Below, in pieces: positions 13,848-14,990 of a stretch of 64,000 nt of DNA. The DNA is from Naegleria gruberi. Taxonomy: Eukaryota. Made by a program: the position numbers and the translations under genes. The DNA is taken from assembly GCA_000004985.1 (NCBI GenBank), contig GG738871.1; one strand, written 5' to 3'. Within the stretch, counting starts at the first letter, position 1, and each line of letters opens with the position of its first letter. The notes below the pieces were generated by a model, which saw nothing but the letters and a program-made list of their open reading frames with translations, searched no databases and was not told where the DNA came from.

Positions 13848-14990
13848 ATGTTCAAAGGTTACTCTTCCATTCAAAATCACTTTCTCAAGGACGTTGATTC
13901 CTATCCACTCCAAACACAATACGATCCACAGGTACCATGGATCGTAACAGAAAAGATTCACGGATCAAACTTTAGTTTTGTAGTGAGTCTTGTAAAGGAT
14001 GATGCTGCATCAATTGATGATAATAATTTACAAATTCAGGTGGCAAAACGTACGGAAATTTTGGCAGATAATGATCCGTCTTATTATCCAAAGGCTGTTC
14101 GATCAGTTCGTGAATTATATGATGAAAAGATGAAATTGTTATTTAAGAATTTGGCTCTTGATTTGGAAAAGAAGAGAAATGTAAAACTTGTTAGTTTGAG
14201 TGTTTTTGGTGAATTATTTGGTGGTAATTATCCACATAAGGATGTAAAGAATGTTGGTGATAGAGCTCCGATTCAGAGACATGTGTATTATTGTACAGAT
14301 TTTGATTTTTATGTATTTGATATCTTTGTTTTTACAAAGAGTGATGATCCTAATGAAAAGAGATTGAATTATTTCCTTTCCTATGATGATATGGTGGAAC
14401 AAGTGAAAAAAACTGGTTTGGATTGTTATGCAAGAGAATTATTTAGAGGTAAATTGGAAGAATGCTTGAATTATGACAGTGTATTTGATTCTGTCATTCC
14501 TTCCACAATCTATGGTTTACCAGACATGCCTCATCACACCAATATTTGTGAAGGTATCATTATTAAGCCACTTATTGATATGAGGACTGATAAAAATGAT
14601 AGAATGGTTATCAAGAAGAAGAATGATAACTTTATGGAAAAAATTGGTCAAAAAGACAAGGTCAGAAAGGAAAGACTAGTAAAACAAAATACTGGTAAGA
14701 AATTCATTGATGATAAATCAGAACAAGCTATGAGTGATGTCCTCTCCTACATGAATGAAAATAGACTGGAAGGTAACATTTCAAAACTAGGTGACATTTT
14801 CAATTTCCCAAAAATTAGGGAAAGTTGCGTCTATTTACTTGCCCAAGATACTTTGAAGGACTATAGAGAGGAGAATTCTGAAGTGTGGGATCAACTTCCT
14901 AAGGAAGATCGTAAAGCAATCTCTGGTGCCTTACCTGCAATTGCTAAACGTTTTGTTGAGGAATATGTCAGTAAGAATAAACAAAATTAA
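13848..14990 (+). CDS. ATP-dependent RNA ligase of the Rnl2/REL-like nucleotidyltransferase family (380 aa).
   Basis: The motifs sit in the expected order. Motif I is TEKIHGSNF (the KxHGxN lysine-adenylate site typical of T4 Rnl2 and kinetoplastid REL1). The motif III region is VSLSVFGELFGG. Motif IV is ICEGIIIKP (EGxxxK). Motif V is VIKKKN. The C-terminal domain of about 150 aa is Lys-rich and unassigned. Confidence 0.65.
   Translation: MFKGYSSIQNHFLKDVDSYPLQTQYDPQVPWIVTEKIHGSNFSFVVSLVKDDAASIDDNNLQIQVAKRTEILADNDPSYYPKAVRSVRELYDEKMKLLFKNLALDLEKKRNVKLVSLSVFGELFGGNYPHKDVKNVGDRAPIQRHVYYCTDFDFYVFDIFVFTKSDDPNEKRLNYFLSYDDMVEQVKKTGLDCYARELFRGKLEECLNYDSVFDSVIPSTIYGLPDMPHHTNICEGIIIKPLIDMRTDKNDRMVIKKKNDNFMEKIGQKDKVRKERLVKQNTGKKFIDDKSEQAMSDVLSYMNENRLEGNISKLGDIFNFPKIRESCVYLLAQDTLKDYREENSEVWDQLPKEDRKAISGALPAIAKRFVEEYVSKNKQN

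Follow-up and report, generated by a model that had tools for sequence, protein, structure and literature searches.

Ligases of the Rnl2 family have been described as sealing 3′-OH/5′-PO4 nicks in duplex RNA or RNA:DNA (PMC4408790). The C-terminal domain of phage T4 Rnl2 contains a salt bridge between R266 and D292, and the C-domains of the kinetoplastid editing ligases REL1 and REL2 act via the OB-fold partners KREPA1 and KREPA2 in the editosome (PMC4599027). In Naegleria gruberi, 13 ATP-dependent RNA ligases are counted in total (PMC4408790), and Unciuleac & Shuman (2015; PMC4408790) list five as members of the Rnl2 family, one of which is XP_002676530.1. Here we describe the gene for this protein, which lies in a window of 64,000 nucleotides (the whole stretch of DNA that we analysed) on a 417 kb N. 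gruberi contig. The coding sequence occupies positions 13848-14990 on the + strand as one unbroken and intact open reading frame (380 codons and a TAA stop codon, intronless and complete), with an in-frame TGA situated 9 nt 5′ of the ATG, and its 380-residue product is 100% identical to XP_002676530.1/EFC43786.1, which carries the product name ‘mitochondrial RNA ligase’ in both GenBank and UniProt. GenBank has contained the gene from the publication of the N. gruberi genome onwards, and its Rnl2 membership was named by Shuman’s laboratory in 2015; it is thus real and already known, and carries little weight as a discovery. A first-pass annotation, made from the sequence alone, had regarded Rnl2-type ligases as sparsely documented in eukaryotes outside kinetoplastids, a view that does not stand since this exact accession was already among the five N. 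gruberi members. In the literature that we searched for XP_002676530.1 we found no biochemical, expression or localisation data and no published assay.

The N-terminal part of the protein (residues 30-257; 13935-14618, +) matches the nucleotidyltransferase (adenylyltransferase) domain family RNA_ligase (PF09414) with an E-value of 4.7e-21, far above the gathering score. The column of motif I (KIHGSN, residues 36-41; 13953-13970, +) is invariant in our alignment A1; K36, which corresponds to T4 K35, is the predicted AMP-accepting lysine, and T4 H37 and N40 have their equivalents in H38 and N41. Downstream of it, K67-R68 (14046-14051, +) are the counterparts of T4 K54-R55, with R68 invariant in a 65-sequence alignment (A3), and are followed by motif III (FGELFGG, residues 120-126; 14205-14225, +), in which E122 corresponds to T4 E99, and motif IIIa (FYVFDI, residues 154-159; 14307-14324, +), in which F157/D158 correspond to T4 F119/D120. 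Motif IV (EGIIIKP, residues 235-241; 14550-14570, +) contributes E235 and K240 (T4 E204 and K209), and motif V (IKKKN, residues 255-259; 14610-14624, +) contributes K256/K258 (T4 K225/K227). The complete and ordered motif set with a KxHGxN motif I that the first-pass annotation had claimed is therefore present, motif IIIa having been located in addition to motifs I, III, IV and V, and the domain and family matches reported here and below place it far beyond a chance resemblance.

The same annotation could recognise no likeness between the C-terminal domain and the nick-sensing domain of Rnl2 and put its length at about 150 residues; neither statement is borne out. The stretch after motif V amounts to ~120 residues and begins with a Lys/Arg-rich interdomain linker (residues 260-286; 14625-14705, +), which is the least confident part of the predicted structure (pLDDT 63-84). 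It continues as an all-helical, Rnl2-specific C-terminal domain (T4_Rnl2_C, PF18043; residues 287-367; 14706-14948, +) that matches profile positions 3-81 of 82 with an E-value of 5.1e-23, again far above the gathering score. This domain includes NRLEGNISKLG, in which R306 corresponds to T4 R266, and LAQD, in which D334 corresponds to T4 D292, so that the T4 salt-bridge pair is kept as R306/D334. When the C-domains of the Naegleria ligase and T4 Rnl2 were compared alone by pairwise BLASTP the E-value was 3e-4, and the helices of the model span residues 289-377.

The best NCBIfam family is TIGR02307 (‘RNA ligase, Rnl2 family’; E-value 1.7e-45, profile positions 1-317 of 326), although the score of 156 bits lies under the curated equivalog cut-off of 197.15 bits, so that the ligase need not be functionally equivalent to the curated proteins; such a score argues for a divergent subfamily and is compatible with the wider Rnl2 family. 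TIGR02306 (DRB0094 type) gave an E-value of only 0.02, and the protein departs from the Rnl5 pattern of a signature N-terminal domain ahead of the nucleotidyltransferase domain and nothing appended at the C-terminus: its nucleotidyltransferase domain begins at residue 1 and is followed by an Rnl2 C-domain. Sequence matches in the PDB were TbREL1 (6e-12) and T4 Rnl2 (4e-11). We compared the ligase with T4 Rnl2 at 25 positions of functional importance in the alanine-scanning literature and found 21 to be identical, including Y5, E35, K36, H38, N41, K67, R68, E122, Q143, F157, D158, D180, R200, S215, E235, K240, K256, K258, R306 and D334. T39 to S40 is a conservative change, and three positions are altered (R33 to T34, K189 to H229 and F65 to S78). 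Given a one-residue shift in the alignment, the T4 F65/F66 pair may correspond to Y79/Y80. Structure prediction, which had been proposed as a check on both domains, gave a confident AlphaFold2 model (pLDDT 92.5, pTM 0.89) whose best Foldseek matches were full-length T4 Rnl2 (2hvr/2hvq; E-value 2e-17), with both domains aligned over ~390 columns; its fold is nearest to solved Rnl2 structures and not to Rnl1/3/4/5, DNA ligases or capping enzymes. Overall, we consider it very probable that the locus is a resident nuclear gene of N. gruberi for a canonical two-domain Rnl2-family ATP-dependent RNA ligase.

By analogy with T4 Rnl2, and going by the conservation of the active site, K36 of motif I would attack ATP to form a covalent ligase-(lysyl-N)-AMP, the AMP would be passed, with the assistance of the helical C-domain, to the 5′-phosphate at a duplex nick, and the 3′-OH of the RNA would attack the adenylylated 5′ end to give a phosphodiester and free AMP. 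Enzymatic activity and a preference for a 3′-OH RNA strand at a duplex nick are thus what the sequence predicts, and the function would most likely be the ATP-dependent sealing of 3′-OH/5′-PO4 nicks in duplex RNA or RNA:DNA for RNA repair. Our confidence in the identity and chemistry of the ligase is high, whereas we put the chances that its role is the repair of RNA nicks outside mitochondria at about even; we infer a cytosolic or nuclear location and an RNA-repair role within the unusually large RNA-ligase repertoire of Naegleria. The genes of relatives in Bacteroidota adjoin genes for a cyclic-phosphate-processing receiver, an RNase T-like exonuclease, a metallophosphoesterase, an RNase H-like protein and a second ligase, although this RNA-repair neighbourhood comes from relatives at ~30% identity and nothing comparable is clustered at the Naegleria gene. 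Alternatively, the same chemistry could serve DNA repair by sealing a short RNA patch (3′-OH ribonucleotides) to 5′-phosphate DNA following gap filling by a repair polymerase. Such a role has been explicitly speculated on for Rnl2 and Rnl5 enzymes (PMC4408790), which tolerate DNA on the 5′-PO4 strand and the template strand, and two ribonucleotides at the 3′-OH end suffice for T4 Rnl2. However, we found no support for it that is specific to the Naegleria ligase, the bacterial relatives are accompanied by RNA-end-processing genes and not by DNA repair genes, and no DNA-repair gene is linked inside the window; we therefore regard a DNA-repair role as unlikely.

In neighbour-joining trees with 200 bootstrap replicates (numpy implementation), the Naegleria ligase grouped with heterolobosean and other eukaryotic sequences with moderate support (137/200). 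REL1 and REL2 formed a clade in all 200 replicates with the Naegleria ligase outside it, and a joint clade of heterolobosean and REL sequences was recovered in only 17/200. The eukaryotic clade of the ligase, which has named heteroloboseans among its members, thus stands apart from the REL enzymes, and this makes the gene a reasonable candidate for asking what a stand-alone Rnl2 does in a eukaryotic cell. Of the ‘Rnl2/REL-type’ assignment that placement against REL1/REL2 was meant to check, the Rnl2 half holds (by Pfam, TIGR02307 and fold) and the REL half does not. Because support at the deep nodes was 0-12/200, the trees speak neither for nor against a deep link to REL. It has occurred to us that the Naegleria/Willaertia/Acrasis clade, together with its other eukaryotic sequences, could represent an ancient canonical Rnl2 lineage, inherited vertically in Discoba, which preserves the free-living, stand-alone ancestral state that preceded the recruitment of kinetoplastid editing ligases, or could mark an undiscovered guide- or template-directed pathway of RNA repair or processing in heteroloboseans; we offer this as a conjecture with rather poor prospects. 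A JGI ‘RNA-editing ligase’ with a sub-threshold T4_Rnl2_C match (P0055), considered as an intermediate between REL and Rnl2, turned out to be a REL2-like kinetoplastid protein, PF18043 being present in many named REL2 proteins. An Rnl2-type ligase of Entamoeba histolytica, considered as a comparator, was dropped as no canonical RNA ligase has been found in that species (PMC6052137).

The product name in GenBank and UniProt implies that the ligase works in mitochondria and resembles REL1/REL2 in function, a reading to which the position of Heterolobosea as the sister group of Euglenozoa (PMC4599027) also lends itself. However, the mitochondrial targeting signal that the first-pass annotation had proposed to look for was not found at the N-terminus of the Naegleria ligase: in the alignment Met1-Phe2-Lys3 pair with T4 Rnl2 residues 1-3 and the functional position Y5 is conserved, which leaves no cleavable leader, and the in-frame stop codon immediately upstream of the ATG likewise counts against one. 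The motif I lysine stands at position 36 in the Naegleria ligase, 35 in T4 Rnl2 and about 37 in the Bacteroidota proteins, whereas in REL1/REL2 it stands at 57-133 behind Arg-rich, acid-poor leaders; the first 25 residues of the Naegleria ligase contain 2 basic and 2 acidic residues. The exclusion of the ligase from the REL clade points the same way, as does a search with a REL2-like query, in which none of the 120 proteins at E ≤ 0.001 came from Naegleria. Heterolobosean mitochondria carry out C-to-U editing and tRNA 5′ editing, and neither process is known to need a ligase. Internal or cryptic mitochondrial import signals are possible. Nevertheless, we judge the mitochondrial, REL-like reading to be very improbable: given that there is no N-terminal presequence, the ‘mitochondrial’ label is probably an artefact of homology transfer and should not serve as evidence of localisation.

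The ligase is a resident nuclear gene of a eukaryote, as is seen from its native composition, its eukaryotic neighbours and the two introns of its N. lovaniensis orthologue, and the placement in a eukaryotic nuclear genome by the first-pass annotation was correct. The neighbouring genes on the 417 kb contig encode a small GTPase of the Ras superfamily (matched by the Pfam Ras family and, as we read it, Rac/Rho-like in sequence), a DEAD-box helicase, a calpain, EGF-repeat proteins and a ZIP transporter, and the GC content (0.333) and GC3 (0.276) of the ligase gene are indistinguishable from those of its neighbours. Heterolobosean orthologues and paralogues exist, the former in N. lovaniensis (58% identity; two introns of the GT-AG type), Willaertia (44%) and Acrasis, and the contigs of other eukaryotic members of the clade carry Yip1, PP2C, F-box, polyubiquitin, EF-hand and kinase genes. 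That the sequence was recently acquired from a bacterium or phage, or contaminates the assembly, and is no functional eukaryotic gene might be suggested by the absence of introns from the N. gruberi copy, by the fact that outside Heterolobosea and the other eukaryotic sequences the nearest proteins are those of Bacteroidota (28-34% identity), and by the lateral transfer of Rnl2 reported in ciliates (PMC13198582). Yet the composition, the embedding among eukaryotic genes, the orthologues and their 137/200 clade, and the intact reading frame with all catalytic residues already contradict both the ‘recent’ and the ‘contaminant’ versions, and we hold this reading to be exceedingly unlikely; an ancient transfer into the heterolobosean ancestor is possible, with the deep nodes at 0-12/200. 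That the gene is instead a catalytically dead or decaying paralogue, which is plausible on grounds of redundancy in an organism with 13 such ligases (PMC4408790) and of the sub-cut-off TIGR02307 score, deserves next to no credence in view of the intact reading frame, the identity of every motif and of 21 of the 25 functional positions, the 44-58% identity of orthologues across genera and the confident, well-packed model.

Scans of the window for tRNAs and Rfam families gave no matches, and Pfam scans of 20 other large open reading frames in the window revealed no RNA-repair genes. A candidate second ligase paralogue at the edge of the window (positions 290-340, -), suggested by a weak tblastn match to the N-terminus of the ligase (E-value 2.9), contained stop codons and no ligase motifs and was rejected as a chance match. 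A functional tie of the ligase to ADP-ribose hydrolases was also considered: a Macro-domain gene adjoins the ligase gene in both N. gruberi and N. lovaniensis, and an ADP-ribosylglycohydrolase gene lies two genes from the ligase gene in Chitinophaga silvatica. The Macro gene is absent beside the orthologue in Willaertia and on two other eukaryotic contigs, and neither the Macro nor the ADP-ribosylglycohydrolase family is among the recurrent neighbours at 80 Bacteroidota loci, and we treat these associations as congeneric synteny and coincidence.

Among known ligases, REL1/REL2 (PDB 1xdn) share with the Naegleria ligase the insert after motif III, and REL2 also has T4_Rnl2_C matches, but the REL enzymes form their separate 200/200 clade and bear mitochondrial-type N-terminal leaders that the Naegleria ligase lacks. 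We know of no U-insertion/deletion editing in Heterolobosea. Other discoban Rnl2-type ligases are DpRNL of Diplonema papillatum and NgRNL (XP_002674912.1) (PMC4599027); DpRNL is short and deviant (~203 residues with a two-helix C-terminal region; PMC4599027), unlike the 380-residue Naegleria ligase, and NgRNL is a different accession with a much weaker PF09414 match (3e-9, compared with 5e-21 for XP_002676530.1). NgrRnl (Rnl5, XP_002669268.1; PDB 5cot) comes from the same organism, has the same general chemistry and probably acts on a similar class of substrate, namely 3′-OH RNA at duplex nicks (PMC4408790). The closest prokaryotic relatives are the Rnl2 proteins of Bacteroidota (Chryseobacterium, Kordia, Tenacibaculum, Flavobacterium and Chitinophaga; 28-34% identity over the full length), which have the same two Pfam domains and a motif I lysine at ~37, but whose genes lie in operon-like clusters with RNA-end-processing genes, whereas the Naegleria gene is a solitary one, its neighbours being eukaryotic and unrelated. 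T4 Rnl2 (gp24.1; PDB 1s68, 2hvq, 2hvr) is a phage gene product and that of Naegleria a eukaryotic nuclear one, their identity is only about 27-29%, and the Naegleria ligase, which carries the R33 to T and K189 to H changes, is 46 residues longer and contains inserted segments (residues 49-62 and residues 127-141), the second of which, after motif III, is common to the bacterial relatives and the REL enzymes. Nevertheless, both share the architecture of an N-terminal nucleotidyltransferase domain and a helical Rnl2 C-domain, the N-terminus MFKxYSS..NH, motifs I, III, IIIa, IV and V and the R266/D292 pair, and for a full Rnl2 with its C-domain the biochemistry of T4 Rnl2 is a good working model.

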